Notes under the pieces: generated by a model | What the model saw: only the letters and a program-made list of their open reading frames with translations | Databases searched by the model: none | Told to the model about the DNA's origin: nothing | Assembly: GCA_964385285.1 (NCBI GenBank) | Contig: CAYLOJ010000001.1 | Location: 88,537-152,536, forward strand | Reading direction: 5' to 3' | Length of the DNA: 64,000 nt | Source of the DNA: an uncultured Gammaproteobacteria bacterium | GTDB lineage: Bacteria; Patescibacteriota; Patescibacteriia; UBA9570 | Shown: positions 1,544 to 57,240 of the stretch, in pieces | Layout of the letters: each line of letters starts with the position of its first letter | How positions within the stretch are numbered: the stretch's first letter is position 1 | Position numbers and translations under genes: made by a program

Positions 1544-2640
1544 TGATTAAGCCACATACTATGAAAAAAATGTTTTGGTCGTTGCTCATCGCACCGACAG
1601 TCGCACTCGGACTTACGGGTTCGCTAGCAGCCCAGGCCAACAGCGGGGCACATGATCTGCAAGCTGAACTTGTACAGTCGTTGCCCGATTACGACTCTGC
1701 ACGATTATTTAAACACCATCGTCATTTATTTGCCGCTGTGAGCAATGCGGACAACACCATGAGTATCTACACCGCCAACAAACGCGGAAATCTTTGGGAG
1801 CTAATGGATACCGACGCTGATTCGATCGCTAATTTTGCATCCAACAACAGCGCAATCACCTCGTTTGCGGTTCATGGTCGAAACCTGTATGCCGGCACCA
1901 TCAGTAGTGATGGAGTTGCAGAAGTATGGTCCATCCCAACGAATGCCCGGCCAGCAACCTGGGAGCAAGTTGGCGCGACCGGATTAGGCGATGCCGATAA
2001 TACTAGTGTTATTGATCTATTCCAAATTCCTGGACAAGGCTTGTTTGCTGTCACGGCAAATCCAGCTGGTAATGGATTATTCCAATTGGTCGACGGAACA
2101 TGGGAGCAGATTGGAGAGTACGGATTCGGCGTAGAATTAACTGACGCATTGGCAGCCAGTGATGTTCGAGTAGTCGGTGATGTCGTCAATATTGCCAGCA
2201 GCGCTGGTATTGTTTATCAAGCAGATGCGTCGAATTTAGAGAGCTGGACTGCCATTCACGATTTCGGAGTTGAGATTACTGCCATGCGCGGACGCTTTGT
2301 AGCGACTACAGAAGATGGGGTAGCCAAAATTTATGAAAGTGATGCTGATAATCTCTACCAACAAGTCGGAGAGAACGATCTTGATCAAGCAACCAATGAG
2401 GAGGTAACACGGTTCGTGAATATCTCGCGTCACCCAGCAGTACTAGTTAAGAATTCAACCGATGGTGCTGCGTTGTACCAATACCAACCCGATACTGAAA
2501 CATGGGAAAGCCAAGTTTCTGATGGCTTTGGGAATGCAAATAATGCTAGTGCTACAGGTGTAATCTGGTATCATAGCGATCGCTTTATCGCTACAGTGAA
2601 TACCGAAGACGGATCAGAGATCTACCGTTTGGAACGGTAA
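1543..2640 (+). CDS. Secreted hypothetical protein (possible beta-propeller-like)
   Basis: Signal peptide (LLIAPTVALGLTGSLAAQA). The 365-aa product is Gly/Asp/Thr-rich with repeated motifs (VGDVVNIASSAG, IYESDADNLYQ). No recognisable catalytic motif. Confidence 0.4.
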   Translation: MIKPHTMKKMFWSLLIAPTVALGLTGSLAAQANSGAHDLQAELVQSLPDYDSARLFKHHRHLFAAVSNADNTMSIYTANKRGNLWELMDTDADSIANFASNNSAITSFAVHGRNLYAGTISSDGVAEVWSIPTNARPATWEQVGATGLGDADNTSVIDLFQIPGQGLFAVTANPAGNGLFQLVDGTWEQIGEYGFGVELTDALAASDVRVVGDVVNIASSAGIVYQADASNLESWTAIHDFGVEITAMRGRFVATTEDGVAKIYESDADNLYQQVGENDLDQATNEEVTRFVNISRHPAVLVKNSTDGAALYQYQPDTETWESQVSDGFGNANNASATGVIWYHSDRFIATVNTEDGSEIYRLER

Positions 2641-2672
2641 GCGATATACAGAAATAAAAACAGAAATCAGCC

Positions 2673-2706
2673 AGTAGAGACGCATTCCAATGCGTCTCTA
2701 CTTTTG
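2673..2706 (+). terminator. Rho-independent terminator hairpin
   Basis: AGTAGAGACGCAT-tcca-ATGCGTCTCTACT forms a 13-bp perfect stem followed by TTTT. It lies 30 nt after the stop of the 1543..2640 gene. Confidence 0.55.
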
Positions 2707-2728
2707 CATACGATAAGAATAGAGTAAA

Positions 2729-2757
2729 TTGACCTAAACCAAAAATTGTGAAACAAT
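2729..2757 (+). promoter_or_regulatory. Putative sigma70-like promoter for gatB (leaderless-type)
   Basis: TTGACC (2729-2734), a 17-bp spacer, AACAAT (2752-2757), then 9 nt to the ATG at 2767. No Shine-Dalgarno motif present. Confidence 0.3.
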
Positions 2758-2766
2758 AGTGCCCAT

Positions 2767-4272
2767 ATGGCACAAACCTATGAAGCAGTCATCGGCCTAG
2801 AAATTCATGTTCAGCTGAACACAAAGTCGAAGATGTTTTCTGCAGATTCGAATGCAGATTCCTTAGAACCCAATGTCCATGTGAATCCTACCTCCATGGG
2901 CCATCCTGGTACATTACCAGTTTTAAATGCAGCCGCCGTGGACATGGCCATCATGGCTGGCTTGGCACTGAATTGCAAAATTGCTGAATACACTAAGTTT
3001 GATCGTAAACAATATTTTTATCCTGACCTCCCAAAGGGTTATCAGATTTCCCAGCACGATCTACCCATCTGTCAGGACGGCCATCTCACGATCTACGAAG
3101 ATGATGTAACGCCGCTCACCATTGGCATTGAACGCATCCACATGGAAGAGGATGCTGCAAAAAATGTCCACATGGCAACTGCCACATTAGTAGACTTTAA
3201 CCGCGCGGGTTGTCCGTTAATTGAAATCGTGACTCGCCCTGATTTGCGCACTCCTAAACAAGCACGTGTATTTTTACAGGAGTTACAGATGTTGATTCGC
3301 TACTTAGGAATCTCAGATGCGGATATGGAAAAAGGTCATATGCGCATGGATGTAAATATTTCGTTGCGCCCCGTCGGTGATGACGCCTTGTATCCACGCA
3401 CAGAGATTAAAAATATGAACTCCTTCAAAGCAGCTGAACGGGCTTTGATCTACGAAATTGAGCATCAGACTGAATTATGGGAGAAACATCAGGCGCCTGA
3501 GCGACATCGTACCTGTGGGTGGGACGATGCTGCTGGAGTAACCTTAGAGCAGCGCACGAAGGAAGAAGCCGCGGATTACCGTTATTTCCCCGAACCCGAT
3601 ATTCCACCACTGCGGATTTCCCAAGAAAAAATTGACGGTATTTTTAAACGGTTACCAGAATTACCACAACAGCGCCGTGACCGCTTCCGTGAGGAGTACT
3701 TTTTATCCTATTACGATGCCAAGGTATTAACCGCCGACCCACGCGTAGCTGAATACTATGAGGATACCGTATCGGAATTGCGTAGCTGGCTGAGTTCATT
3801 AGATAACAGCGAAGGTAGTGACGATGAGATTTGGCAACGTGAAGGGGAGAAGTTGTGTCGCCAAGTATCCAATTGGATTACATCAGAATTATTTGGACAA
3901 CTTGCTAAGGCAAAGTTGGATTTTGCTAGTTTGAAGATTACTCCAGAAAATCTGGCTGAATTTATTAGCTTGCTCCATCAAAACAAAGTCAACTCATCAG
4001 CCGCGCAGACGATTTTGAAAGACATGTTTGAACGCGGCTCTGACCCTTCACAAGTGATGGCCGAATTAGATTTAGAACAGGTTCATGATACGGATGCGCT
4101 GGGTAAAGTCTGCGACGATGTGATTGCTACTAACCCACAAATTGTGGAACAATATAAAGCTGGTCGTGAGCGGGTATTAATGTTCTTAGTTGGTCAAGCC
4201 ATGAAAGCGATGAAAGGTAAAGCCAACCCAGAAAGTATCACAGCGCTACTGCGTGAAAAATTAAAGTCTTAA
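2767..4272 (+). CDS. gatB: Asp-tRNA(Asn)/Glu-tRNA(Gln) amidotransferase subunit B
   Basis: N-terminus MAQTYEAVIGLEIHVQLNTKSKMFS and overall length (501 aa) are characteristic of GatB. A C-terminal YqeY-like tail is present. Confidence 0.9.
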   Translation: MAQTYEAVIGLEIHVQLNTKSKMFSADSNADSLEPNVHVNPTSMGHPGTLPVLNAAAVDMAIMAGLALNCKIAEYTKFDRKQYFYPDLPKGYQISQHDLPICQDGHLTIYEDDVTPLTIGIERIHMEEDAAKNVHMATATLVDFNRAGCPLIEIVTRPDLRTPKQARVFLQELQMLIRYLGISDADMEKGHMRMDVNISLRPVGDDALYPRTEIKNMNSFKAAERALIYEIEHQTELWEKHQAPERHRTCGWDDAAGVTLEQRTKEEAADYRYFPEPDIPPLRISQEKIDGIFKRLPELPQQRRDRFREEYFLSYYDAKVLTADPRVAEYYEDTVSELRSWLSSLDNSEGSDDEIWQREGEKLCRQVSNWITSELFGQLAKAKLDFASLKITPENLAEFISLLHQNKVNSSAAQTILKDMFERGSDPSQVMAELDLEQVHDTDALGKVCDDVIATNPQIVEQYKAGRERVLMFLVGQAMKAMKGKANPESITALLREKLKS

Positions 4273-11951: not shown

Positions 11952-12017
11952 CTACTGTTGTCTGAAAAAATCTTCCCACTAGCAACACTCCTGTTCGCTA
12001 GCACGGAGGATCCTACT

Positions 12018-12185
12018 ATGGATCACGACAGAGCCACGCGCATACCCGTTACACCACACACTGCCTCCACCACCACGGACGATCCTGATCACCCTGCCGC
12101 CATGAGCCTGCCACCGGGCAAGCGCAGCGCACAGGTGCCGGAACGGGCCTGTGGAGAGGTCGCCCTCCCGGTTTGGGAGTGGTAG
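12018..12185 (+). CDS. Small ORF (55 aa) inside GC-rich insert, preceded by a strong Shine-Dalgarno motif
   Basis: GGAGGA at 12005-12010, 7 nt before the ATG at 12018. Product MDHDRATRIPVTPHTASTTTDDPDHPAAMSLPPGKRSAQVPERACGEVALPVWEW has no recognisable family. The ORF track extends it 5' to 11958, but no Shine-Dalgarno motif lies there. Confidence 0.2.
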   Translation: MDHDRATRIPVTPHTASTTTDDPDHPAAMSLPPGKRSAQVPERACGEVALPVWEW

Positions 12186-12297
12186 CGGATTCGTAGTCGG
12201 AAGGGCAGGGCGGTGGTCTCAACCCCACTGCCCGCCCACACCCATCCCGCCGTTCAAACGGTATTTTTTATTTACCTGGTTTTCGTGTATACTGGCA

Positions 12298-12303
12298 ATA
12301 ATT
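12298..12303 (+). promoter_or_regulatory. Possible -10 box (TATACT) upstream of argH
   Basis: TATACT lies 26 nt before the argH ATG. No clean -35 at 17-bp spacing, so this is weak. Confidence 0.2.
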
Positions 12304-12329
12304 TGAATTATTAAGTAAGTGCACTCTGT

Positions 12330-16781: not shown

Positions 16782-17558
16782 ATGCATAAGGAATACACAG
16801 ACCATATAGTCTTCGAAAAATTGTTGGTGTATTCAAATTATTATAAAAACTTGTCCGGTTTGATTCTAGGCTTTGCCTCTTTAGGTACTAGCAAGGTATA
16901 TAATATTGATACCTATACCTATTCTTCTATACAAGGTACTTTGGAATCAATACATGATATTTTAAAAAAAGGGCGGATCAATGATAGTTACGCTCTATTA
17001 AGAAAGTACTATGATTCGATCATTATTAATATCTATACTGTTTTATATCTTAAAGATCATGTGAGTGCTGAAGAGTTTATTGTCGAAAAAATTGATAATT
17101 GGCTTCAAGGAAGTGAAGCTTTACCAGAATATAGAGTAATGAATAATTACGTTCGTTCTTCAAATGATCTCAAGTCTCTTAATCATTTACTCTTTAAAGA
17201 CGATACGTATAAAAATATACGGGATCGTTGTAATAATCACGTACATTACAACTTTTTTCGCTACGTGCTTTTAAATGATAATGAAATAAACTTTGGCAAC
17301 AGAACTAAATCTTTAGATATTTTTTTAAAGGATTTAGATAATATATTTGTACTCCACTTTTGCTACTTATTTACAGTAAATCCACATTATATGGCATCTA
17401 CAGATTATGTGGATAGTCTAGATCTAGGCCTTATTGCTGATGAGAATTCACAATATTATGTAGCCCCATTTATACAAACAGCATTCAATGATATAAAAGT
17501 AAATCGACCCGACTTAGCAGAGGAAATAAAAAACAACTCTATAATGTACTTAGAATAA
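16782..17558 (+). CDS. AT-rich orphan hypothetical protein (possible HEPN-like Rx5H motif)
   Basis: 258-aa ORF with very low GC (roughly 28-30%) in a ~45% GC context. The product is rich in N/Y/K/I. It contains RDRCNNH (R-x5-H). No other recognisable motif. Confidence 0.45.
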   Translation: MHKEYTDHIVFEKLLVYSNYYKNLSGLILGFASLGTSKVYNIDTYTYSSIQGTLESIHDILKKGRINDSYALLRKYYDSIIINIYTVLYLKDHVSAEEFIVEKIDNWLQGSEALPEYRVMNNYVRSSNDLKSLNHLLFKDDTYKNIRDRCNNHVHYNFFRYVLLNDNEINFGNRTKSLDIFLKDLDNIFVLHFCYLFTVNPHYMASTDYVDSLDLGLIADENSQYYVAPFIQTAFNDIKVNRPDLAEEIKNNSIMYLE

Positions 17559-18896: not shown

Positions 18897-18925
18897 TTGA
18901 AATCAAGTGGCGGCAATGTTATAAT
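18897..18925 (+). promoter_or_regulatory. Sigma70-type promoter for fbp, leaderless-type
   Basis: TTGAAA (18897-18902), a 17-bp spacer, TATAAT (18920-18925), then only 8 nt to the ATG at 18934. No Shine-Dalgarno motif. Confidence 0.55.
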
Positions 18926-18933
18926 CCAGACAT

Positions 18934-19914
18934 ATGTTAAAACATCCTACATTATCTCAGTTTGTCTTAGAGCAGGAACGCGAATTCGGTGGATCTGGAG
19001 AATTTTCACAAATTTTGCTGGATATTGGAGTAGTCGGAAAAGTAATCTCTCATCAGGTCAATAAAGCAGGTTTAGTGGATATTCTCGGTGAGGCTGGAGT
19101 AGAGAACAGTTCTGGCGATACCGTTAAAAAACTCGATGTCCTCTCCAATGAACTATTTGTGAACTACCTATCTAGAGCAGGTCACTTTGCGGCACTGGCA
19201 TCTGAAGAAGAGACAGATATTGTGGTGGTGCCAGGCGCAGAGCAGGCCAAATATGTAATTGCCTTTGATCCCTTAGATGGTTCGTCTAATGTCGATTACA
19301 ATGTCTCGGTTGGTAGTATTTTTTCGGTGCATCGTCGCGTAACTGAACTGGGCACTCCTGCTACGATCGAGGATTTTCTACAAAAGGGTAAAGATCAAGT
19401 AGCGGCTGGATATATTTTATATGGCTCTAGCACAATGTTAGTGTATACAACGGGTCACAAAGTGCACGGATTCACCTTGGACCCAACCATTGGTGAATGG
19501 CTATTATCCCATGAAGATATCCAAATTCCTAAAACCTGTGATGTCTATTCCGCTAATGAAGCTTACATGCCGACTTGGTCCGAAGCAGCGCGCAAGTTTA
19601 TGGCTGATTTCAAAGCTAACAATCCAAAGGCCACTTCTCGCCATATTGGCTCCTTAGTAGCAGACCTCCATCGCAACTTATTGAAAGGTGGTTTGTACTT
19701 CCGTCCTTATGATAATAATGAAAAGCAATCCGCTAAGTTACGCTTGAACTACGAGCTAAAACCGTTAGCGATGATTGTAGAGCAAGCTGGTGGTTATACT
19801 ACAGCGGGCAAAGGTTCGATTCTCGATATCAAACCCGAAGCACTGCATTCTAAAAGCCCAATGGTGGCCGGCAATGCAGAGTTTGTGAAGCAATGGGAGA
19901 GTCTGCAATCCTAG
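18934..19914 (+). CDS. fbp: Fructose-1,6-bisphosphatase class 1
   Basis: FBPase class I blocks VDPLDGSSN-like (FDPLDGSSNVDYNVSVGSIF) and GKLRLNYE-like (AKLRLNYELKP). Confidence 0.85.
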   Translation: MLKHPTLSQFVLEQEREFGGSGEFSQILLDIGVVGKVISHQVNKAGLVDILGEAGVENSSGDTVKKLDVLSNELFVNYLSRAGHFAALASEEETDIVVVPGAEQAKYVIAFDPLDGSSNVDYNVSVGSIFSVHRRVTELGTPATIEDFLQKGKDQVAAGYILYGSSTMLVYTTGHKVHGFTLDPTIGEWLLSHEDIQIPKTCDVYSANEAYMPTWSEAARKFMADFKANNPKATSRHIGSLVADLHRNLLKGGLYFRPYDNNEKQSAKLRLNYELKPLAMIVEQAGGYTTAGKGSILDIKPEALHSKSPMVAGNAEFVKQWESLQS

Positions 19915-19939
19915 CCCTATAGAATCCTATGATCACAAA

Positions 19940-19961
19940 GCCCGGCGTCAGCCGGGTTTTT
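19940..19961 (+). terminator. Rho-independent terminator of fbp
   Basis: CCCGGC-gtca-GCCGGG followed by TTTTTT. Confidence 0.6.
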
Positions 19962-19987
19962 TGTCGATCACGGTATTGACAGCTGGC

Positions 19988-20395
19988 ATGAAAACATTTA
20001 TACAGTGTGCGCTTCCCACAAGCAAGGAGTGCCGGAAGAAGCTACTACTGATAGAAGACGAACCGCTGGTCGTCCGCGGTCTGAAGCGCTCACTCGAACG
20101 GGCTGGGTACGGTGTCCTCGTGGCAATGTCCCTGGCTGAAGCAAGAGAGCAGATTCAAGACCCCGACATCCGCTGGGTGTTGTGTGACACAAACCTCCCG
20201 GACGGCTCAGGGAATGAGCTGCACCATGAGTGGACTGTCACTGGACGGCTCAACAGCGAGACCCAGTTCATCGCCATGAGCGGTGACTGGATCTCCAATC
20301 ACAAAGCCGCGGCCTACTACCGGAGCACAGCCGTGCTCATGGTGGAAAAGCCGTTCCGCGACTTTAGAACGGAGGTGCTCAACAAGCTGAGCTAA
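19988..20395 (+). CDS. Stand-alone response-regulator receiver (CheY-like) domain protein, GC-rich
   Basis: REC domain with KKLLLIEDEP, the phospho-acceptor Asp in VLCDTNLPDGSG, and the conserved Lys in VEKPF. About 58% GC against ~45% in the flanks. The start is uncertain: the ORF track starts at 19961, and an AAGGAG lies inside the ORF. Confidence 0.55.
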   Translation: MKTFIQCALPTSKECRKKLLLIEDEPLVVRGLKRSLERAGYGVLVAMSLAEAREQIQDPDIRWVLCDTNLPDGSGNELHHEWTVTGRLNSETQFIAMSGDWISNHKAAAYYRSTAVLMVEKPFRDFRTEVLNKLS

Positions 20396-20462
20396 CCGGA
20401 GGAAGACGGGGCAGGGATCGTACACCACGATTCCTGCCTCGCTTCATTTTAATTAATCCAAT

Positions 20463-22226
20463 TTACCAAATAGCCTTAGTGCTGATATCAGTTTTAAGCT
20501 GCTCGACAAAAGCCGTTAGATCCACTGTGACAGTATCTTTACTGCCACGTTTTCGGACTGCCACTTGTTTAGCTTCAATTTCTTTATCGCCCACAACAAC
20601 TAAGTAAGGAACTTTTTCCGCGACGGCTTTGCGGATCTTATTGCCAACCGTTTCACTGGCCTCATCAATTTCTACGCGCACACCAGCGGCGTGTAACGCT
20701 GCCTTCACAGTTTTTGCATACTCAATATGAGTATCAGCTACCGGTAATAATTTCACTTGTACTGGAGCCAACCAAGTAGGGAAGTTACCAGCGAAGTGTT
20801 CAATAATGACACCCATGAACCGTTCAACAGAACCCATTACTGCGACGTGGATCATCACTGGGCGCTCTTCCTTGCCTTCTGCGGAAGTATAAGACAATGT
20901 AAAGCGTTCAGGCTGGTTCACGTCTAATTGAATCGTCGCTAACTGCCACTCACGACCAAGGGAGTCCACGGCCATATAATCGATTTTCGGACCATAAAAT
21001 GCCGCTTCACCTAGACCAATCACATACTCCAAGCCCTTGCTTTCCATCACGGAACGCAGTGCTTGTTCCGAAGCCTGCCAGGTTTCTTCCGTGCCAAGAT
21101 AGTTTTCCATATGAGCAGGATCATGTACCGAGAACCGTGGACGTAGTTCTAAACCAAATTTACTATAGAGTTCTGTAATAATATCCTGGGCTAATTCAGC
21201 TTCTTGTTGAATCTGATCTTTACGCGCAAACACATGAGAATCATCTTGTGTCAGTGAACGCACGCGCGTTAACCCCTGGATCTGACCAGTATTTTCATCA
21301 CGATAGTTGGTCGTAGTTTCAAAATAACGAATCGGGAGATCTTTGTAACTCCGCATTTGCGAAGCATAAATTTGCGTATGATGTGGACAGTTCATCGGCT
21401 TCATTACAAACGTGGCATCTGTTTTCTTACTGCTAACATGAAAGAGATCATCTTCAAATTTATCCCAGTGTCCCGAGGTCTTGTACAATTCAGCTTTAGC
21501 CATGTGGGGAATCCAAACGCGTTGAAAGCCACGTTGTTCGCGCAATTCACCAATGTAATTTTCTAACTCCCGACGAATCGTAGTACCTTTGGGTGTAAAT
21601 AATGGTAAACCAGCACCGACTAAATCTGAGAAGGTAAACAGATCAAGTTCTTTACCGAGTTTGCGATGATCGCGTTTTTTGGCTTCTTCAATTTGATGCA
21701 AGTACTGCTTGAGGACTTTAGGAGTAGGGAAGAGTAGACCGTAAATGCGCGTCATTTGCGGACGAGTACTGTCGGCCTGCCAATACGCACCGGCTAATTT
21801 AGATAGTTGCAAGCCAACGCTCTGGAGTTCCTGAGTATTATTAATGTGGCCACCTTCACATAAGTCAGTGAACGGTCCGGATTGATACAATGTCAAATCG
21901 CGACCATCTGCCGAAAACTTATCTATCAACTCTTGCTTAAAAGGCTGATCATGGAAGAACGCTTTGGCCTCAGCGGCCGTAACTGCTTTACGAACAAAAT
22001 CATGCTGACCAGCAATAATCTGTCGCATTTTCGCCTCGATCTTTTCTAGATCATCGGGCGTGATCGGTTGGGGTGGTAAGAGATCATAATAAAACCCGTT
22101 ATCGACCACTGGGCCAGTACCTAGTTGGGTGCCAGGAAATAATTCCAACACCGCTGCAGCCAACATGTGAGCAGCCGAGTGACGTAAACCATAAAGGGCA
22201 TCGTGTTCAGATTCAGCGGAAGCCAT
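20463..22226 (-). CDS. thrS: Threonyl-tRNA synthetase (lacking N-terminal TGS domain)
   Basis: Second-domain motif RHSAAHMLAAAV, class II catalytic core and a C-terminal anticodon-binding domain. 587 aa. Confidence 0.9.
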   Translation of the reverse strand: MASAESEHDALYGLRHSAAHMLAAAVLELFPGTQLGTGPVVDNGFYYDLLPPQPITPDDLEKIEAKMRQIIAGQHDFVRKAVTAAEAKAFFHDQPFKQELIDKFSADGRDLTLYQSGPFTDLCEGGHINNTQELQSVGLQLSKLAGAYWQADSTRPQMTRIYGLLFPTPKVLKQYLHQIEEAKKRDHRKLGKELDLFTFSDLVGAGLPLFTPKGTTIRRELENYIGELREQRGFQRVWIPHMAKAELYKTSGHWDKFEDDLFHVSSKKTDATFVMKPMNCPHHTQIYASQMRSYKDLPIRYFETTTNYRDENTGQIQGLTRVRSLTQDDSHVFARKDQIQQEAELAQDIITELYSKFGLELRPRFSVHDPAHMENYLGTEETWQASEQALRSVMESKGLEYVIGLGEAAFYGPKIDYMAVDSLGREWQLATIQLDVNQPERFTLSYTSAEGKEERPVMIHVAVMGSVERFMGVIIEHFAGNFPTWLAPVQVKLLPVADTHIEYAKTVKAALHAAGVRVEIDEASETVGNKIRKAVAEKVPYLVVVGDKEIEAKQVAVRKRGSKDTVTVDLTAFVEQLKTDISTKAIW

Positions 22227-45711: not shown

Positions 45712-47169
45712 TCACCACCAGCGGAGCGTGACGTACGGTCCGACTCGCCCCACCAGCTGGAAGCCGACGGGAGTCTGGAACGTTGCCTCCACCTCACCGG
45801 CTTTGGTGTACAGCGTCGTGGGCAGAGAGGCGCCGTTGGTGTAGCGCATCTCCAAAGCTCCGAAGACGCCGACGTTCCAGCCGTAGCGCTCGCCCGTGTG
45901 TTGACCAACACCAGCACGCAGGCCAGGACCATACCAAGGCATCATCTGCACCTGGGTGAATTGATTGTGGTTTGAGCCACAAAGCATATTCAGGTCCGAG
46001 CCCTCTTCACAGTTGAACACAGTCGGACCGAAGCCCGCCATGATCAGCGGATTGATCCGGTACTCCCACGACTTGCCGAGATCGTGGTGGAGCACCGGTC
46101 CGAAGCCCACGTAAACATCTGGCACGATGGTGCCTGCCGCCTTGTCCTCGTTGATCAAGGCCCCGGCGAGAGCTACGTAGATCTGCTGGCTGTACTGCAG
46201 CTGGAGGAGATCGAACTGGAGACCGGAGCTTGCCCAACCCAGCCGGTTGCCGTTGGCACTGATCGTGACGACCGGGATTGGCAAAGTCACCGCACCGAAC
46301 GGGTGCACCTGCAGCGCGGGAGCGGCGGAGGCAACAGGAGCCGTGGCAGTGAACAGCACGTTGTCCGGCAGTTTGGGCGCGTACGTGCCCTTGCCGTCGA
46401 ATCCCACCACTTCATAGAATTGGCAGCTTCCGCTGACCAACTCGTAGGTCGTTTTGGGAGTGCTGACTCCACGCTGATTGGGATCGCTCACGCTCTTGGT
46501 CACCGTCTTGTAGACGGCGACGAACCAGCGACCAGCCCCGTACAGGGTGTCACTGGTCGCCTTGCCCGAGATCCCGAGCGGGCTGACGGCAGCATCCAAT
46601 TTCTTGGGGCACTGCTTCGCCGTCGCTTCAGCGAGGTCGCGGATGCGAACGTACCCAGGCTGCACCTGTGGAATCTGGATATCCAAATCCAAGAAGTACA
46701 GCTTCTTGTCTGGCGCCCAGCTGATTACAGGCTTGTAAACCTGGTCAACCTGATGCTCGACGACCTGGCGGGGCTGGCAACTGTCGGGTTCGAGAACCCA
46801 GCTGTTACGATCCACCCGATGGTAGACCCCTACATAGTAGGTGTCACCGGGGGTGAGGACGTAGTCATCGCTGGAGTACCGGACGTCCGCGAGTGACCGC
46901 TTCCAGGGATGGAAGAGGTTGCCGTTGATGTCGACCGGGTCTGGAGCAGCCGGACAACTCCGGTTGATGTAGACCGCGACCAGGTAGTTCGCCGGAATGT
47001 AGTCCGCCTTGTTGATCCTCAAGTCGGGCTCCGAGAACCGGAGGTTGATCTCCTGGTTCGTTCGGTCGATAGCGGTCGCATCCTGGGCCCGAGCCACCGG
47101 CATGGTGACGAGAAGGGTAAGGAGGCAAGCCGCCAGCACGAGCAGGGAGCGGGTGAGAGAGAGCAGCAC
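45712..47169 (-). CDS. GC-rich secreted protein, possible outer-membrane beta-barrel
   Basis: GTG start preceded by GAGGTG. Signal peptide (LLVLAACLLTLLVTMPVARA). The C-terminal half is Gly/aromatic-rich with alternating hydrophobics and ends ...TLRWW. About 65% GC. Confidence 0.5.
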   Translation of the reverse strand: MLLSLTRSLLVLAACLLTLLVTMPVARAQDATAIDRTNQEINLRFSEPDLRINKADYIPANYLVAVYINRSCPAAPDPVDINGNLFHPWKRSLADVRYSSDDYVLTPGDTYYVGVYHRVDRNSWVLEPDSCQPRQVVEHQVDQVYKPVISWAPDKKLYFLDLDIQIPQVQPGYVRIRDLAEATAKQCPKKLDAAVSPLGISGKATSDTLYGAGRWFVAVYKTVTKSVSDPNQRGVSTPKTTYELVSGSCQFYEVVGFDGKGTYAPKLPDNVLFTATAPVASAAPALQVHPFGAVTLPIPVVTISANGNRLGWASSGLQFDLLQLQYSQQIYVALAGALINEDKAAGTIVPDVYVGFGPVLHHDLGKSWEYRINPLIMAGFGPTVFNCEEGSDLNMLCGSNHNQFTQVQMMPWYGPGLRAGVGQHTGERYGWNVGVFGALEMRYTNGASLPTTLYTKAGEVEATFQTPVGFQLVGRVGPYVTLRWW

Positions 47170-47374
47170 GAAGCACCTCGTTTCGCTTGGGTTATTGCTG
47201 ATGGAACACTTTCAATGAACGCAATGGACGAACTATTCGCCCAAACGAACTGATCATGAATGGAATCATGCTCAACTCATTTGGGTGGGCCGGCAGGGGA
47301 ATGCAGAACAAGTCATACACGCCCCCACCGACCGATTCCTCCTCAGGAACCCTTAGATACAGACACCCAGTCGG

Positions 47375-49417
47375 TTAGGGACGACGGCGGCGCAACGAGA
47401 GCAGCAGAATCGCGACCCAACTCCCGCTCGAGGCGAACCCCAAACGGTTGTTGCAGCCACAGCCAGTGCCGTAGAGAACAACACCCTTGCTGCTCCCCGT
47501 GTCATCCATTCCGGAATCCACGATTCCAGTGTCGTCGGTGTCACCCGAATCGCCAGAGTCACCGCTGTCGCCGGAATCTCCCGTGTCGGACTGATGGGCA
47601 TCACTCCCATCACAATCCTGGTCGATCCCGTCGTCCGGAACCTCTTCGGCACCGGGGTTGATGGTGGGGTCGGCGTCGTCACAGTCTCCTGCATACTCGC
47701 TGTAGCCGTCACCGTCAGAGTCGTCACACTCCGTGGAATCGTCTGCCACGCCCGAGCAATCCTGGTCCACACCGTCGCACGTTTCCGTAGCTCCGGGATG
47801 GATGGACGCATCCGTGTCGTTGCAGTCATCCGTGGTGTAGCTGTCGCCATCCACGTCATCCTCCAAGCAGTCGAGGATGCCGTTGCCGTCCACGTCATCT
47901 ACCCAATCTTCATCGGTGTAGCTGTCGCAGTCGTCGTCGATGCCGTTGCAGGCTTCGATGATCGCAGGGGACTGGGCCGAGTTTGCGTCGTTGCAGTCGC
48001 CCGCATCTTCGCTGTAGCCGTCGGAGTCGTCGTCGTAGCAGCTCGTGCCCTCGTCGATCGTGCCGTCACAGTCCTGGTCCACACCGTCGCACACTTCCGT
48101 AGCGCCGGGGAAGATGTCAGACCGCGTGTCGTCACAATCGGAGCTCAGGTCGTAGCCATCTGCGTCGATGTCGTCGTCGTCCGTGAGACCATCACAGTCC
48201 TGGTCCACACCGTCGTAGGCGATTTCGCTGGCGCCGGGGTTGGTACCGGCGGCGTTGTCGTCGCAGTCCGTGGTGTAGTCGTACCCGTCACCGTCCACGT
48301 CGGTCAGGTCGCTGCCGGAGCAGTCCTGGTCGATCCCGTCGTAGGCCGTTTCCGGCGCGCCCGGGTAGGTGGAAGGAGCACTATCATCACACTCCTCACA
48401 GCCCATGTAACCGTCACCGTCCACGTCGTCCTCGTCGCCGAGGCCGTCGCAGTTGGAGTCCACACCGTCGCAGCTCTCGCTGGCGCCGGGGAGGATGGTC
48501 GCATCGGTATCGTCACAGTCGCCCTCGTCCTCCTGGTAGCCGTCACCGTCGTCGTCGTAGGCGATCGTGCCCTCATCGATGATGCCGTCACAGTCGTTGT
48601 CCACCCCGTCGTAGTTCTCGTAGGCGCCGGGGTAGGCGTCCGCGTTGGCGTCGTTGCAGTCGTCACAGGCCAGGTAGGTGTCACCGTCGGCGTCGACCTC
48701 GTCGCCAAGGCCGTCGCAGTTGGAGTCCACACCGTCGCAGCTCTCGCTGGCGCCGGGGAGGATGGTCGCATCGGTATCGTCACAGTCGCCCTCGTCCTCC
48801 TGGTAGCCGTCACCGTCGTCGTCGTAGGCGATCGTGCCCTCATCGATGATGCCGTCACAGTCGTTGTCCACCCCGTCGTAGTTCTCGTAGGCGCCGGGGT
48901 AGGCGTCCGCGTTGGCGTCGTTGCAGTCGGTCCCACCCACGTCAGTGGAGTCGTAGCCGTCACCGTCGACATCGGTCAGGTCGCTGCCGGAGCAGTCCTG
49001 GTCGATCCCGTCGTAGGCGATCTCGACTTCGGCGAAACCATCGGCATGACCGTTGCAGTCATTGTCGATGCCGTCACCGCAGACCTCCGTCGCCGCAGGG
49101 TTAACCGCAGCATCGGTGTCGTTGCAATCGTCGGACCCGCTGTATCCATCACCGTCGTTCTCATCGGTGGTGCACAGCGCTGCAGGCTCCCAATCTTCAT
49201 CGTAGAGCCCGTCGCAGTCTTCGTCCTCGGCGTCACCACACTGCTCGGTGGCACCGGGGTAGATGGTGGGGTCGTAGTCGTTGCAGTCGACGGAGTCGTC
49301 GAAACCGTCGAGATCCACATCCGCCGCCATGGCGAAGTGGGGGAAGAGGGTGGCGATCATGACCAGCAGGGCGCAAAGCGCTCGACAGGTCGACTTCTGG
49401 TTGAGATTGAACCGCAT
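47375..49417 (-). CDS. Cys/Asp-rich secreted repeat protein with MopE-type metal-binding repeats and a MYXO-CTERM-like tail
   Basis: GGAGG Shine-Dalgarno motif 5 nt before the ATG. Signal peptide. About ten repeats of DGDGY..DCDDxDAxxxPGAxExCDGxDxDCDG. C-terminus is DSGDSGDSGDSG...GCGCNNRLGFASSGSWVAILLLSLRRRRP. About 68-70% GC. Confidence 0.6.
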   Translation of the reverse strand: MRFNLNQKSTCRALCALLVMIATLFPHFAMAADVDLDGFDDSVDCNDYDPTIYPGATEQCGDAEDEDCDGLYDEDWEPAALCTTDENDGDGYSGSDDCNDTDAAVNPAATEVCGDGIDNDCNGHADGFAEVEIAYDGIDQDCSGSDLTDVDGDGYDSTDVGGTDCNDANADAYPGAYENYDGVDNDCDGIIDEGTIAYDDDGDGYQEDEGDCDDTDATILPGASESCDGVDSNCDGLGDEVDADGDTYLACDDCNDANADAYPGAYENYDGVDNDCDGIIDEGTIAYDDDGDGYQEDEGDCDDTDATILPGASESCDGVDSNCDGLGDEDDVDGDGYMGCEECDDSAPSTYPGAPETAYDGIDQDCSGSDLTDVDGDGYDYTTDCDDNAAGTNPGASEIAYDGVDQDCDGLTDDDDIDADGYDLSSDCDDTRSDIFPGATEVCDGVDQDCDGTIDEGTSCYDDDSDGYSEDAGDCNDANSAQSPAIIEACNGIDDDCDSYTDEDWVDDVDGNGILDCLEDDVDGDSYTTDDCNDTDASIHPGATETCDGVDQDCSGVADDSTECDDSDGDGYSEYAGDCDDADPTINPGAEEVPDDGIDQDCDGSDAHQSDTGDSGDSGDSGDSGDTDDTGIVDSGMDDTGSSKGVVLYGTGCGCNNRLGFASSGSWVAILLLSLRRRRP
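48440..48930. repeat. Near-perfect tandem duplication (~267-bp period, ~221 bp identical per copy) inside the repeat-protein gene
   Basis: The string ggccgtcgcagttggagtccacaccgtcgcagctctcgctggcgccggggaggatggtcgc...gcgttggcgtcgttgcagt occurs at about 48442 and again at about 48708. It encodes the duplicated 89-aa block DCNDANADAY...CDGLGDE. Confidence 0.7.
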
Positions 49418-53985: not shown

Positions 53986-55205
53986 CGCTTAGGTATAATC
54001 TCTGTCACGCCCATCATCATGGGTAGTAACACCTCTGGGATGCGAACCGTACCTTCTGCCGTCTGATAGTTTTCCATAATTGCGGCAATAATCCGACCAA
54101 TCGCTAAAGCCGTAGCGTCATTCATGTGGACAAACTCCAGACTACCATCTACTTTACGGACTTTTGTATTTAAACGACGAGCTTGGTAATCGCTCATGTA
54201 ATCGGCAGTGTGGGTTTCGCGATAAACGCCTTGGCCCGGCATCCAGGTATTGATATCCATTCCACGTGCATTCGGATCGCCAATATCACCGGTGCATTTT
54301 AATAGCAATTGATACGGCAGATTCAATTTTTGAAGCAATTCTTCTTCGATCGAAACCAACAACTGATGTTCGGCTAAGGCTTGTTCACCGGTACTGAAGA
54401 CTTCCATCTCTACTTTATGAAATTGGTGTAAGCGAATGATACCACGCGTATCTTTACCGGCGGCACCTGCTTCGCGCCGTAAGGCCGGTGAAAAAGCGAT
54501 ATAACGTTTTGGTAATTGCTCTTCGGGAATAATTTCATCCATATGGATCGGACCCAGCGTATGTTCAGCACTCCCGATTAAATAGAGATCATCTGCAGGC
54601 AAATAGTAGCGTTCGTCTGTGGGATGCAAGCGTGCCATCTTTTCAAAGACAGCTGGCTTAATAAAGATTGGTGGAATTATCGGGGTAAAACCTTTGCGCA
54701 CAGCCACACTTAAGGCCAAATTGACTAAGGCGTATTCCATCAAGGCCAGATCCCCTTTTAAATAAGTAAACCGAGCGCCGGAGACTTCAGCGGCTTTTTC
54801 ATTATCAATCACATCTAACGCCCTCCCTAATTCCCAATGAGGCTTTGGTTGAAAATCAAACTTGGGCTGTTTGCCCCACTCTTTCACAATTTGATTACCG
54901 GATTCATCTGGACCAACCGGGGTGTCGCTAGTGGGAATATTGGGAACAGTCCAAAGCAATACACGTAGCTGTTCTTCGACGTCCGTTAGTTCTTTTTGGA
55001 TCCCTTTGACTTTCACGGATAATTCTTTGGCACCATCCTTGCCTAACTTACGTTGCTCAGCGCGCAAGGTATCGTGCTCCCCTTGCAGATCTTTACGTTT
55101 TTGGTCTAGAGCTAATAACGCATCAATATCCGCAGTTGATTTTTTATTCGTCACCGCTTGTTTCACTAAGTCCGTGTGTTGGCGAATGAATTTAATATCG
55201 ATCAT
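53982..55205 (-). CDS. serS: Seryl-tRNA synthetase
   Basis: N-terminal coiled-coil arm (MIDIKFIRQH...) and class II motifs. Confidence 0.9.
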   Translation of the reverse strand: MIDIKFIRQHTDLVKQAVTNKKSTADIDALLALDQKRKDLQGEHDTLRAEQRKLGKDGAKELSVKVKGIQKELTDVEEQLRVLLWTVPNIPTSDTPVGPDESGNQIVKEWGKQPKFDFQPKPHWELGRALDVIDNEKAAEVSGARFTYLKGDLALMEYALVNLALSVAVRKGFTPIIPPIFIKPAVFEKMARLHPTDERYYLPADDLYLIGSAEHTLGPIHMDEIIPEEQLPKRYIAFSPALRREAGAAGKDTRGIIRLHQFHKVEMEVFSTGEQALAEHQLLVSIEEELLQKLNLPYQLLLKCTGDIGDPNARGMDINTWMPGQGVYRETHTADYMSDYQARRLNTKVRKVDGSLEFVHMNDATALAIGRIIAAIMENYQTAEGTVRIPEVLLPMMMGVTEIIPKR

Positions 55206-57240
55206 AGGCAGCTTGCATAGCTTCTAAACAAATCTTTAAACCATCTTCAATTGTCATGCCCACTAATTCTGGAGCGCGCTCAGTAATCGTGCGATCAATG
55301 GCTTTTGCGAAACTTTTATCTTTGAATTTTTTCACTAGGCTTTTTAACTCCAAATTCCGAACATCCTTATCTGGGCGAACAGCCGTTGCGGCCATCACCA
55401 AACCCGTAGACTGCTCAAAACAATACATCACTTTTGACATTAGAGATTGGGGTTCCAGTTTATGCATTTTGCCATTATGTTCTTTGACTGCAGCCACGAT
55501 TAATGGATGAATCCCTTTTTTCTCCAACCACTCCGCACCTACTAACGAATGTTGTTCAGGAGTGACTTGCGTATAATCAATGTCGTGTAACAAACCAGTG
55601 ATTCCCCAAGCCTCTGGATTGGCAGCCTGAAAATGTTCAGCAAATTTCTGCATGATTATTTCCGTAGCCAACATATGGCGGCGCAATTGCGGATCCAACA
55701 CCTCTTGCTGCATCCATTCTAGTGCTGCCGCACGCGTTATACCTGGTTCAAACTGGGTTAATGACTGATCAGATCCCGTGGCACCGGGAGCCTGCTTAGG
55801 ACGCAATAATGGAAACATGACGCACTCTCGAATCGGCTTATCCATCAAGAATGAGAATAAGCGTTCACTAACTCCAAACCCTGATGTGGGTGGCATGCCG
55901 TATTCTAAAGCCTCCACAAAATCTTGATCATGCATTTGGGCCTCTTCGTCCCCCGCTGCTCGCATATCTGCCTGATGCTCAAAGCGTTCGGCTTGGTCGA
56001 TCGGATCATTCAACTCAGTGTAGCCGTTACCTAATTCACTCCCAGCAATAATCACCTGATAGCGCTCCACTAATTCTGGATTACTTTCCATGCGTTTAGC
56101 CAAGGGTGACACGGCTACAGGATGATTAATCAAAAAGACCGGCCCGGCAATCGTTTTACGACATTGTTTCCAGAGCAGATCAGTTAAACGACCACGGCCA
56201 ACTTCAGCATCGATTTTTAAGCCCAGGCTCAGACATTTCGCTTTTAATTCTGCATCCGTTGCGGTTAACACATTGATTCCTAATTGATCGTTAACAGCGG
56301 TCACATAATCTAACTTAGGCCAGGGTTGAGCAAAGTCCACTGCAAACCCTTTAATGGTGAACTGCAAGGTACCAAACGTAGCCTGAATGACCTGTTTATA
56401 AAGTCGTTCCACCAATTCCATCGTATCTTGATAATTGGCAAAGGCCCAATAAAATTCCATTTGGGTATAGTCTTGCAAATGTTCCGGACTAATACCCTCA
56501 TTACGAAATTGTCGACCAATTTCAAATGTCTTTTCAAACCCGCCTACCATTAAGCGTTTCTGCCATAATTCTCCCATGGAAATACGTAAGAAGAGATCAA
56601 TATCTAGGGCATTGTGATGCGTAACAAATGGTTTGGCGTCTGCTCCACCCGGCGTTGATTCTAAAACAGGGGTTTCCACTTCAAGAAATCCTTCTGCCAT
56701 TAAAAATTGTCTGATGCTATTCCAGAAGGTTGCTTTCTTTAAAAACATCTCACGCAATTCCGGTGACAACAACATATCAACATAACGCCGCCGATAGCGC
56801 TGCTCCTCATCTTGCAAGCCAAACCATTCAGCTGGCAGAGGCTGTACGGCTTTGGTCAACATACTGATACGTTCTACTAAAATGGATTGCTCACCTTTAT
56901 GTGTGACGAAGGGCTTGCCAACGATCTCAACAATATCACTCACATCAAAATAACGCAGGTCAGCGTAGCTTGGCTGCTGCAACTCTTCTTTGGATAGCGC
57001 AATTTGCATGCGCCCAGTACTATCTTCCAAATGCGCAAACGTCAATTTACCATGCTCACGCCATTGGCGGAGTCGCCCGGCTAACGTAACAGTGGTGTTA
57101 GTCAATTCCTCAAAGTGACGCAACACAGCACCCACAGTGTGCGTGCGGTGACTAGCAGAAGGATAGATGGGTCCGATATTGGCGCGGTAAGCTTTGGCTT
57201 TCTCAATGCGTCCGGACCGTTCGTCGTGCGATTCGGCCAT
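55192..57240 (-). CDS. lysS: Lysyl-tRNA synthetase (class II) fused to a C-terminal HD-domain
   Basis: OB anticodon domain, class II motif 2 (FRNEGIS) and motif 3 (GFGVSERL) occupy roughly the first 490 aa. A ~190-aa extension follows with an H...HD signature (AEHF ... GLLHDIDY). Confidence 0.8.
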   Translation of the reverse strand: MAESHDERSGRIEKAKAYRANIGPIYPSASHRTHTVGAVLRHFEELTNTTVTLAGRLRQWREHGKLTFAHLEDSTGRMQIALSKEELQQPSYADLRYFDVSDIVEIVGKPFVTHKGEQSILVERISMLTKAVQPLPAEWFGLQDEEQRYRRRYVDMLLSPELREMFLKKATFWNSIRQFLMAEGFLEVETPVLESTPGGADAKPFVTHHNALDIDLFLRISMGELWQKRLMVGGFEKTFEIGRQFRNEGISPEHLQDYTQMEFYWAFANYQDTMELVERLYKQVIQATFGTLQFTIKGFAVDFAQPWPKLDYVTAVNDQLGINVLTATDAELKAKCLSLGLKIDAEVGRGRLTDLLWKQCRKTIAGPVFLINHPVAVSPLAKRMESNPELVERYQVIIAGSELGNGYTELNDPIDQAERFEHQADMRAAGDEEAQMHDQDFVEALEYGMPPTSGFGVSERLFSFLMDKPIRECVMFPLLRPKQAPGATGSDQSLTQFEPGITRAAALEWMQQEVLDPQLRRHMLATEIIMQKFAEHFQAANPEAWGITGLLHDIDYTQVTPEQHSLVGAEWLEKKGIHPLIVAAVKEHNGKMHKLEPQSLMSKVMYCFEQSTGLVMAATAVRPDKDVRNLELKSLVKKFKDKSFAKAIDRTITERAPELVGMTIEDGLKICLEAMQAAYDRY

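Follow-up and report, generated by a model that had tools for sequence, protein, structure and literature searches.

The convergent gap between fbp and thrS in a 64,000-nucleotide stretch of contig CAYLOJ010000001.1 (the window) contains a short GC-rich segment that encodes a CheY-like receiver domain. Our analysis makes it likely that this segment is a complete gene, here called REC, whose product is a stand-alone receiver (a single-domain response regulator), and that REC is separately transcribed and has occupied the fbp-thrS slot from a time before the divergence of at least four related lineages. The observations behind this reading concern the predicted fold, the catalytic residues, synteny, expression signals, base composition, and a changed start codon. 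The original prediction had described an orphan single-domain CheY-like receiver, which was upheld, and had taken it for a recent insertion carrying part of a larger two-component gene, which was not.

The fbp-thrS gap encodes a complete receiver domain

The gap lies between the fbp stop codon at 19914 and the thrS stop codon at 20463 (positions 19915 to 20462, 548 bp) and holds, as first proposed, a segment with a single receiver open reading frame (ORF). This sole sizeable ORF begins with a TTG at 19961 and extends to 20395 on the forward strand. It matched the Pfam family Response_reg (PF00072) with an E value of 4.9e-12 and 46.4 bits (cut-off, 30.2 bits), covering profile positions 2 to 102 of 111. 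We placed the receiver coding region itself at 20033 to 20395 on the forward strand, 120 codons plus the stop codon, a region that is homologous to the full orthologue proteins as well as to PF00072. An AlphaFold2 model of the 120-residue core (20033 to 20392), based on an alignment of 22 sequences, had a predicted local distance difference test (pLDDT) score of 96.4 and a predicted template modeling (pTM) score of 0.89. The model contains five strands (residues 2 to 7, 26 to 31, 46 to 52, 78 to 83, and 102 to 105) and five helices (residues 11 to 23, 34 to 40, 60 to 70, 90 to 98, and 111 to 119). When this model was used as a Foldseek query, more than 500 receivers in the PDB were retrieved, the best being CpxR, PhoP, KdpE, DivK, and Spo0F with template modeling (TM) scores of 0.75 to 0.82, and phmmer likewise ranked PDB receiver domains best.

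All five active-site residues (E8, D9, D52, S83, and K106, numbered in the 120-residue core) are present in the window copy, in agreement with the intact Asp/Lys catalytic set noted at the outset. Across the six members of the family, E8, D52, and K106/P107 are invariant, while position 9 is Asp or Asn and position 83 is Ser or Thr. The predicted phospho-acceptor, Asp52, is encoded by the GAC codon at 20186 to 20188 on the forward strand; it closes strand β3 of the model (residues 46 to 52) and is invariant across the family alignment and also among 22 receiver sequences.

No output domain is encoded between the Shine-Dalgarno (SD) motif and the terminator described below, beyond which lie fbp and thrS. 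The coding region stops about 12 residues past the conserved Lys-Pro and is followed by the terminator. Pfam scans of 25 window ORFs revealed no partner kinase, and a tblastn search with 129 kinase and response-regulator proteins found neither a histidine kinase nor a second receiver in the 64-kb window. The description of the segment as a receiver without an output domain or a cognate kinase thus holds, the latter within 64 kb. None of 22 NCBIfam matches reached its equivalog cut-off (best, 38 bits against a cut-off of 500; DivK-like, 28.1 against 160; CpdR, 26.2 against 180), and REC is therefore not a regulator of a named type.

Related loci carry a receiver gene at the same site

We compared the window with locus L001 (protein P0001), the P0003 locus (L025/L030), L002, which encodes a 116-residue receiver, the empty site L029, the locus of a paralogue (L026, protein P0098), and L027. 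The data set thus comprises four REC-bearing fbp-thrS loci and one empty site, L029 being the only locus obtained from a metagenome scan with an fbp profile. A word-indexed search of 5.8 billion proteins returned a single relative, P0001 at 60% identity. An exhaustive HMMER search brought in P0003 (47% identity), after which came only generic receivers at about 30 to 39%. With a profile of the family, only six members were recovered from the 5.8 billion proteins at an E value below 1e-40, and the next match was at 1e-18. The family is very small, fast-evolving, and lineage-restricted. No donor phylum emerged, as past these six members we found generic receivers from many phyla at 1e-18 or weaker. 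The best matches lie within the host lineage and have a similar GC content; the closest proteins are syntenic orthologues that are as GC-rich as REC itself, which contradicts the idea of a recent insert.

The anchors of this synteny are fbp (18934 to 19914, forward strand), which encodes a class I fructose-1,6-bisphosphatase (Pfam FBPase and FBPase_C, E = 1.8e-72) upstream of REC, and thrS (20463 to 22226, reverse strand), which encodes threonyl-tRNA synthetase (Pfam tRNA-synt_2b, HGTP_anticodon, and tRNA_SAD) convergently downstream. L001 contains fbp, REC, and convergent thrS (fbp and thrS both 94% identical to those of the window). The P0003 locus contains fbp, REC, thrS, a baseplate-J-like gene, and dnaE, as in the window (89% for fbp and 87% for thrS). 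L002, a contig of a GTDB metagenome-assembled genome reached via fbp at 74 to 75% identity, contains miaB, fbp, the receiver gene, and thrS (74% for fbp and 78% for thrS). The orthologous receiver cores in these three loci consist of one domain of 116 to 122 amino acids. Two further members of the family lie elsewhere, that of L026 in another genomic context and that of L027 in a 73%-GC genome. The L026 paralogue is located upstream of a leaderless-looking polA gene and again shows a GC spike and an SD motif.

The receiver is missing only from L029 (metagenome contig AMFJ01017188, fbp 77% identical to that of the window), which has the same neighbors and in which fbp and thrS overlap by 12 bp. 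Its fbp is most similar to that of L002 (86%), a locus that does have a receiver. Its thrS (2497 to 4248, reverse strand) is only 51 to 52% identical to the other thrS genes (52% to that of the window), which share 76 to 94% identity, and its baseplate-J-like gene is 57% identical to that of the window. On these comparisons, the simplest reading would be that a foreign thrS replaced the native gene and removed the receiver with it.

In a neighbor-joining tree of REC, the window copy groups with L001 (bootstrap, 99%), followed by L025 (75%) and then L002, with the L026 paralogue outside. This branching order is the order of the fbp identities. Between the window and L001, the rate of nonsynonymous substitution (dN) is 0.033 for fbp, 0.034 for thrS, and 0.31 for REC, and the proportion of synonymous differences (pS) is 0.65, 0.71, and 0.68, respectively; 57% of fourfold-degenerate sites differ in fbp and 51% in REC. 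The ratio of nonsynonymous to synonymous rates (dN/dS) is about 0.02 for fbp and thrS, and synonymous sites are near saturation already in this pair. Over all pairs, fourfold differences amount to 57 to 85% in fbp and thrS and 51 to 70% in REC. The REC protein evolves about 10 times faster than that of fbp, with a dN/dS of 0.18 against L001 and 0.34 to 0.58 in deeper pairs, in every case below 1. This substitution pattern fits a vertically inherited, loosely constrained gene. We detected no signature of a mobile element: flanking direct and inverted repeats were only of chance size (10 to 16 nt), the neighboring ORFs contained no integrase or transposase Pfam domains, and no RNA gene that could serve as a tRNA target was found in the window.

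Predicted expression signals of REC

The upstream gene fbp ends in an intrinsic terminator at 19941 to 19965 on the forward strand (CCCGGC-GTCA-GCCGGG followed by TTTTTTG), which was read from the sequence and whose stem was recovered in a terminator scan. An equivalent hairpin and T-run lie downstream of fbp in L001 and L025. This terminator is predicted to insulate REC from transcription of fbp. It is followed by a promoter-like motif at 19976 to 20004 on the forward strand, identified by motif count and conservation, which consists of TTGACA (19976 to 19981), a 17-nt spacer, and TATACA (19999 to 20004). The pattern TTGACA-N17-TATAYA matches once in the 64 kb, compared with an expectation of 0.02, and a similar motif (TTGACA or TTGACT, then TATAYA) lies at a corresponding position in L001, L025, and L002. 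The argument for this putative promoter is its conservation and not the strength of its consensus. An SD motif, AAGGAG, can be read at 20024 to 20029 on the forward strand within a leader of about 25 nt, and SD motifs are found at the equivalent place in L001 (GAGGAAGG), L025 (AAGGAG), L002 (TAGGAG), and L026 (GGAGG). The order and spacing of promoter-like motif, SD motif, and start are alike in L001, L025, and L002. The segment had been said to lack a credible promoter or SD motif, a statement that these conserved elements contradict.

The hairpin that had been noted after the receiver ORF is real. The terminator scan and a minimum free energy fold place it at 20403 to 20445 on the forward strand, where GAAG and CGGGGCAGGGATCGT are separated by the loop ACACC from ACGATTCCTGCCTCG and CTTC, followed by ATTTTAATT. 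Its core (20407 to 20441) comprises 15 pairs, 9 of them G-C, and is extendable to the full span; the hairpin lies 18 nt from the thrS stop codon and has its T-rich tail on the forward strand. Hairpins of differing sequence occur at the same position after REC in L001, L025, and L002. We also observed the motif GGAGGAAG right after the REC stop codon in three of the four orthologues (20397 to 20404 in the window, about 2643 to 2650 in L001, and about 1521 to 1528 in L025). The terminator stem has the GAAG of this motif at its base, and the motif is not followed by a start codon; it is thus probably structural and not ribosome-binding. Within the coding region, the opening stretch of about 10 codons is richer in AT than the remainder in all six genes (GC content at third codon positions [GC3], 0.22 to 0.67 versus 0.72 to 0.86), as would be expected for a translated GC-rich gene. 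Together, the complete fold of the model, the same-size single-domain orthologues in the same slot, and the promoter-like motif, SD motif, and terminator that REC has of its own argue that the segment is not a fragment of a larger two-component gene.

The SD motif sets REC apart from its surroundings. In the window and its relatives, fbp, miaB, the baseplate-J-like gene, and dnaE are preceded by TGnTATAAT ending 7 to 10 nt before the ATG, without an SD motif; the sites in the window are at 18900 to 18934, about 18867 (reverse strand), 23298 (reverse strand), and about 26684 (reverse strand), and further ones occur in L001, L025/L030, L002, and L029. An SD-like tetramer precedes just 3 of 54 long window ORFs, two of which are genes of the GC-rich island described below, although this count is rough because ORF starts were uncurated. 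Judging from these upstream regions, most translation in the host lineage seems to depend on mRNAs with no leader or almost none, and the SD-led REC orthologues stand out among genes that look leaderless.

The window copy lacks a canonical start codon

Counting upstream from the conserved GAA-GAC (Glu-Asp), seven codons in L001 and L025 and five in L002, the orthologues begin with GTG (L001), ATG (L025), and TTG (L002), whereas the corresponding codon of the window copy, at 20033, is CGG. Inspection against the orthologues revealed no canonical start between the SD motif and the domain in the window copy, which bears out the earlier remark that its start codon is ambiguous. An in-frame ATG (19988) and TTG (19976) sit inside the promoter-like motif, and a third candidate, the TTG at 19961, falls within the tail of the fbp terminator; no SD motif precedes any of the three. 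The window REC protein is missing from the collection of 5.8 billion proteins, which includes the fbp and thrS products and a 485-residue island protein from the same 158,272-bp contig, so that public gene callers evidently skipped it. The window copy has probably undergone a recent loss of its start codon or retains a very weak start, and it is probably translated poorly or not at all, in which case its function would have been lost recently.

Accordingly, we considered whether the window copy is simply a dead relic, a question that concerns this copy and not the family. We regard this as a serious possibility, although we lean slightly against it. CGG stands two changes from GTG or ATG, the only canonical in-frame starts lack an SD motif and lie within the promoter-like motif or farther upstream, and the gene is uncalled in the public gene set, as would be expected of a pseudogene. 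However, the frame is open, a single codon being the only indel relative to L001, all catalytic and family-invariant residues are retained, and the rate of change is not accelerated (dN to L025 of 0.589 for the window copy and 0.580 for L001). Any inactivation must, by these three observations, have been recent.

GC-richness of REC and its possible causes

As first described, the segment is GC-rich relative to its surroundings. The GC content is 55.5% across 19962 to 20462 and 58.8% across 20005 to 20441, and the profile climbs from 42 to 49% in the flanks to 57 to 59% at about 20000 to 20400. The GC3 of the window REC (0.73) is atypical for the host, being about 7 standard deviations above the mean of the 52 other long ORFs (0.425 ± 0.043; maximum, 0.50). 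Similar values occur in the window only in two genes of an island at 45.7 to 49.4 kb (0.77 and 0.80). This GC-richness is shared by the orthologues. In the four loci, GC3 is 0.69 to 0.81 for REC, a span that also holds for one paralogue, compared with 0.39 to 0.49 for the flanking genes. GC at twofold-degenerate sites is 0.70 to 0.79 for REC and 0.28 to 0.33 for the flanks (P = 1e-7 to 1e-11 in each locus), and at fourfold-degenerate sites the values are 0.66 to 0.82 and 0.52 to 0.60. The 11.5 kb of L030 show a single GC spike, at the receiver. Third positions of REC are enriched in G as well as in C, and the bias is therefore not that of classical optimal-codon selection. A GC-rich neutral equilibrium was rejected as unlikely, since the intergenic DNA of the window has a GC content of 45% and the GC3 of 52 host genes clusters tightly at 0.43.

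REC probably came into the clade in the distant past from a source that was GC-rich and used SD motifs, and would have kept a foreign-type layout (GC-rich codons, a -35-type promoter, and an SD-led leader) in a mid-GC, leaderless-looking host. According to the amelioration model of Lawrence and Ochman, transferred genes reportedly drift towards the composition of their host. After an ancient transfer, the GC3 of REC should by now resemble that of the host, and it does not. Selection on GC content or mRNA properties, local biased conversion, and repeated replacement are candidate causes, among which our data do not decide. One form of the first two is that the GC-rich body and the SD-led, -35-type layout are actively maintained in this receiver family and are not leftovers of transfer, or that GC-biased conversion acts very locally; we put this forward tentatively and consider it rather unlikely. 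If maintenance were the cause, codon or mRNA composition would be part of the regulation, for example if translation took place only when SD-dependent initiation, or the melting of a tightly folded mRNA, was favored. Under either maintenance or local conversion, REC would provide a clear counterexample to passive decay, and one whose signature recurs in five independent genomes.

Repeated replacement would mean that the fbp-thrS junction is a hot spot at which related GC-rich receiver cassettes were gained or swapped independently. If each copy were young, its undecayed composition would be accounted for, and the high GC3 in every lineage beside saturated flanks is in line with this. The locus also appears prone to recombination, given the replaced thrS (51 to 52% identity) and missing receiver of L029, and family members exist in another context (L026) and in a 73%-GC genome (L027). 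Nevertheless, the order of the REC tree is that of fbp, with bootstrap support at the two shallow nodes, the AT-rich promoter and leader region and the position of the terminator are common to the loci, neither repeats nor mobility genes were found, and among the 5.8 billion proteins there is no donor candidate nearer than the orthologues themselves. On this balance, we judge the hot-spot explanation improbable compared with vertical descent of REC.

The segment might instead matter mainly as nucleic acid, as a structured or antisense RNA or as a GC-rich DNA element between convergent genes, with the ORF being secondary. High GC persists at synonymous sites, and folds of the whole transcript are more stable than those of shuffled sequences (z = -3.6 for the window, -3.3 for L002, and -5.1 for L025). 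On the thrS strand, the hairpin lacks a T-run, and transcripts of thrS might therefore continue antisense into REC. However, the terminator hairpin supplies most of the z-score. When the coding region alone was compared with synonymous-codon shuffles, the z-scores (-1.0, -0.2, -3.2, and -0.6) were inconsistent across orthologues, and a specific mRNA structure in the coding region was dropped as a candidate. No Rfam match was found for the segment at the gathering threshold or at an E value below 0.1; the whole window yielded none at the gathering threshold, and 19850 to 20550 yielded one chance match to a small nucleolar RNA at an E value below 1. The antisense ORFs of REC are short (47 to 73 amino acids) and differ between loci, and such ORFs are expected in any GC3-rich gene. 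Constraint on the protein is clear, with a dN/dS below 1, conserved catalytic residues, and an open frame in all copies. A primary role as nucleic acid is therefore, in our view, very improbable.

The original proposal of a recent fragment of a high-GC two-component gene, from the donor of the island and without expression signals of its own, draws on the outlying GC3 of the window copy, its codon usage (correlated with that of the island genes and not with that of the flanks), SD motifs that REC and the island genes have and host genes lack, and its noncanonical start, but it is scarcely credible in view of the complete receiver fold of the model, the same-size orthologues in the same slot of three relatives, against which the synonymous sites of the window are saturated, the conserved promoter-like motif, SD motif, and terminator, the chance-sized flanking repeats, and the differing history of an island protein that has no homologues.

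The GC-rich island and other features of the window

The island occupies 45712 to 49417 on the reverse strand and comprises two SD-led genes. One encodes a 485-residue protein without a Pfam or NCBIfam match, for which the search of 5.8 billion proteins returned no homologue but itself, and the other encodes a secreted-looking 680-residue protein with 12 MopE-type putative metal-binding repeats. The relative synonymous codon usage of REC correlates with that of the island genes, at r = 0.61 when the window copy is used and 0.80 when the orthologues are pooled, but shows no such correlation with that of the flanks (r of about -0.1). The suggested likeness to the island was thus borne out for codon usage, whereas a common donor was not, as the 485-residue protein has no homologue and REC predates the split of the four lineages. 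By their composition, REC and the island belong to one class, from which a shared donor or event cannot be shown.

Three further observations were made in the window. Its longest GC-rich intergenic stretch (11952 to 12329; 378 nt, 56% GC) contains no long ORF and gave no Rfam match at the gathering threshold. A 258-codon ORF at 16782 to 17558 on the forward strand, located between a forward-strand gene block and miaB, is AT-rich (GC of about 30%; GC3 of 0.26, the minimum of the window); searches of Pfam and NCBIfam gave no match for it, and it may be a low-GC insertion. Finally, the gene at 55192 to 57240 on the reverse strand encodes a lysyl-tRNA synthetase (NCBIfam lysS, E = 1e-143 to 2e-159) with an additional HD/HDIG domain of about 200 residues at its C terminus.

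Discussion

Several observations weigh against the reading of REC as an anciently resident, separately transcribed receiver gene. No kinase, histidine phosphotransfer (HPt) protein, or known target of REC lies within the 64 kb. A strict sigma-70 scan of the window and the orthologue loci did not flag the promoter-like motifs, which such a generic scan misses because the -10 hexamer lacks the final T. The deep nodes of the REC tree have a bootstrap support of only 47%; the L002 receiver is 31 to 35% identical to the others, no higher than generic receivers, and its assignment as an orthologue depends on synteny, gene layout, and the C-terminal motif. The CGG of the window copy could stem from an error in the assembly; alternatively, read-through transcripts could be translated from the ATG at 19988. 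Lastly, the GC content of REC does not fit passive decay to host composition, so that an ancient transfer does not by itself explain its compositional history. We nevertheless regard a stand-alone receiver gene as the likely reading of the locus.

If REC acts as other receivers do, Asp52 would receive its phosphoryl group from a kinase, a phosphotransferase, or a small phosphodonor encoded beyond the window, and the signal would be passed on by protein-protein contact, probably via the α4-β5-α5 face. This face carries a conserved motif specific to the family, MSG-W...AAAYY...KPF. As a gene, REC is ordinary, a stand-alone receiver, though one of a very rare and so far unannotated family, and it illustrates that a GC-rich patch without a start codon can be a real conserved gene missed by automatic calling. 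The one unusual trait of REC is how long it has kept its high GC content, and it offers a compact test case for compositional evolution: in at least four lineages, across which synonymous sites have been rewritten, a 0.4-kb gene with a GC3 of about 0.75 stands beside neighbors with a value of about 0.42. The rule that atypical GC content means recent transfer fails at this locus. In addition, an SD-led gene among apparently leaderless ones could serve the study of two modes of initiation in one organism.

Like the transferred islets described by Lawrence and Ochman, REC combines atypical GC content and codon usage with foreign-type translation signals between housekeeping genes. It differs from them in occupying the same site in relatives with saturated synonymous sites, in showing no drift to host composition, and in lacking mobility genes, a tRNA, and flanking repeats. 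Among receivers of known structure, those of the OmpR/PhoB type (CpxR, PhoP, KdpE, TorR, and ArcA) are its best PDB matches (TM score of about 0.8, 21 to 27% identity, and phmmer E values of 1e-5 to 1e-4), but the winged-helix DNA-binding domain of that type is absent after REC in the window and in all orthologues.

In its layout, REC resembles the single-domain regulators CheY, Spo0F, DivK, and CpdR, which likewise consist of one receiver of about 120 amino acids without an output domain and share with it the five-strand, five-helix fold, the acidic pocket, and the Asp, Ser/Thr, and Lys residues. Regulators of this class act through phosphorylation-dependent protein contacts, and the same is presumed for REC. 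In contrast to these regulators, REC has no chemotaxis, sporulation, or cell-cycle partners nearby, carries Met or Arg at the aromatic switch position, three residues ahead of the Lys, and belongs to a family with an α4 signature of its own, W86...AAAYY.

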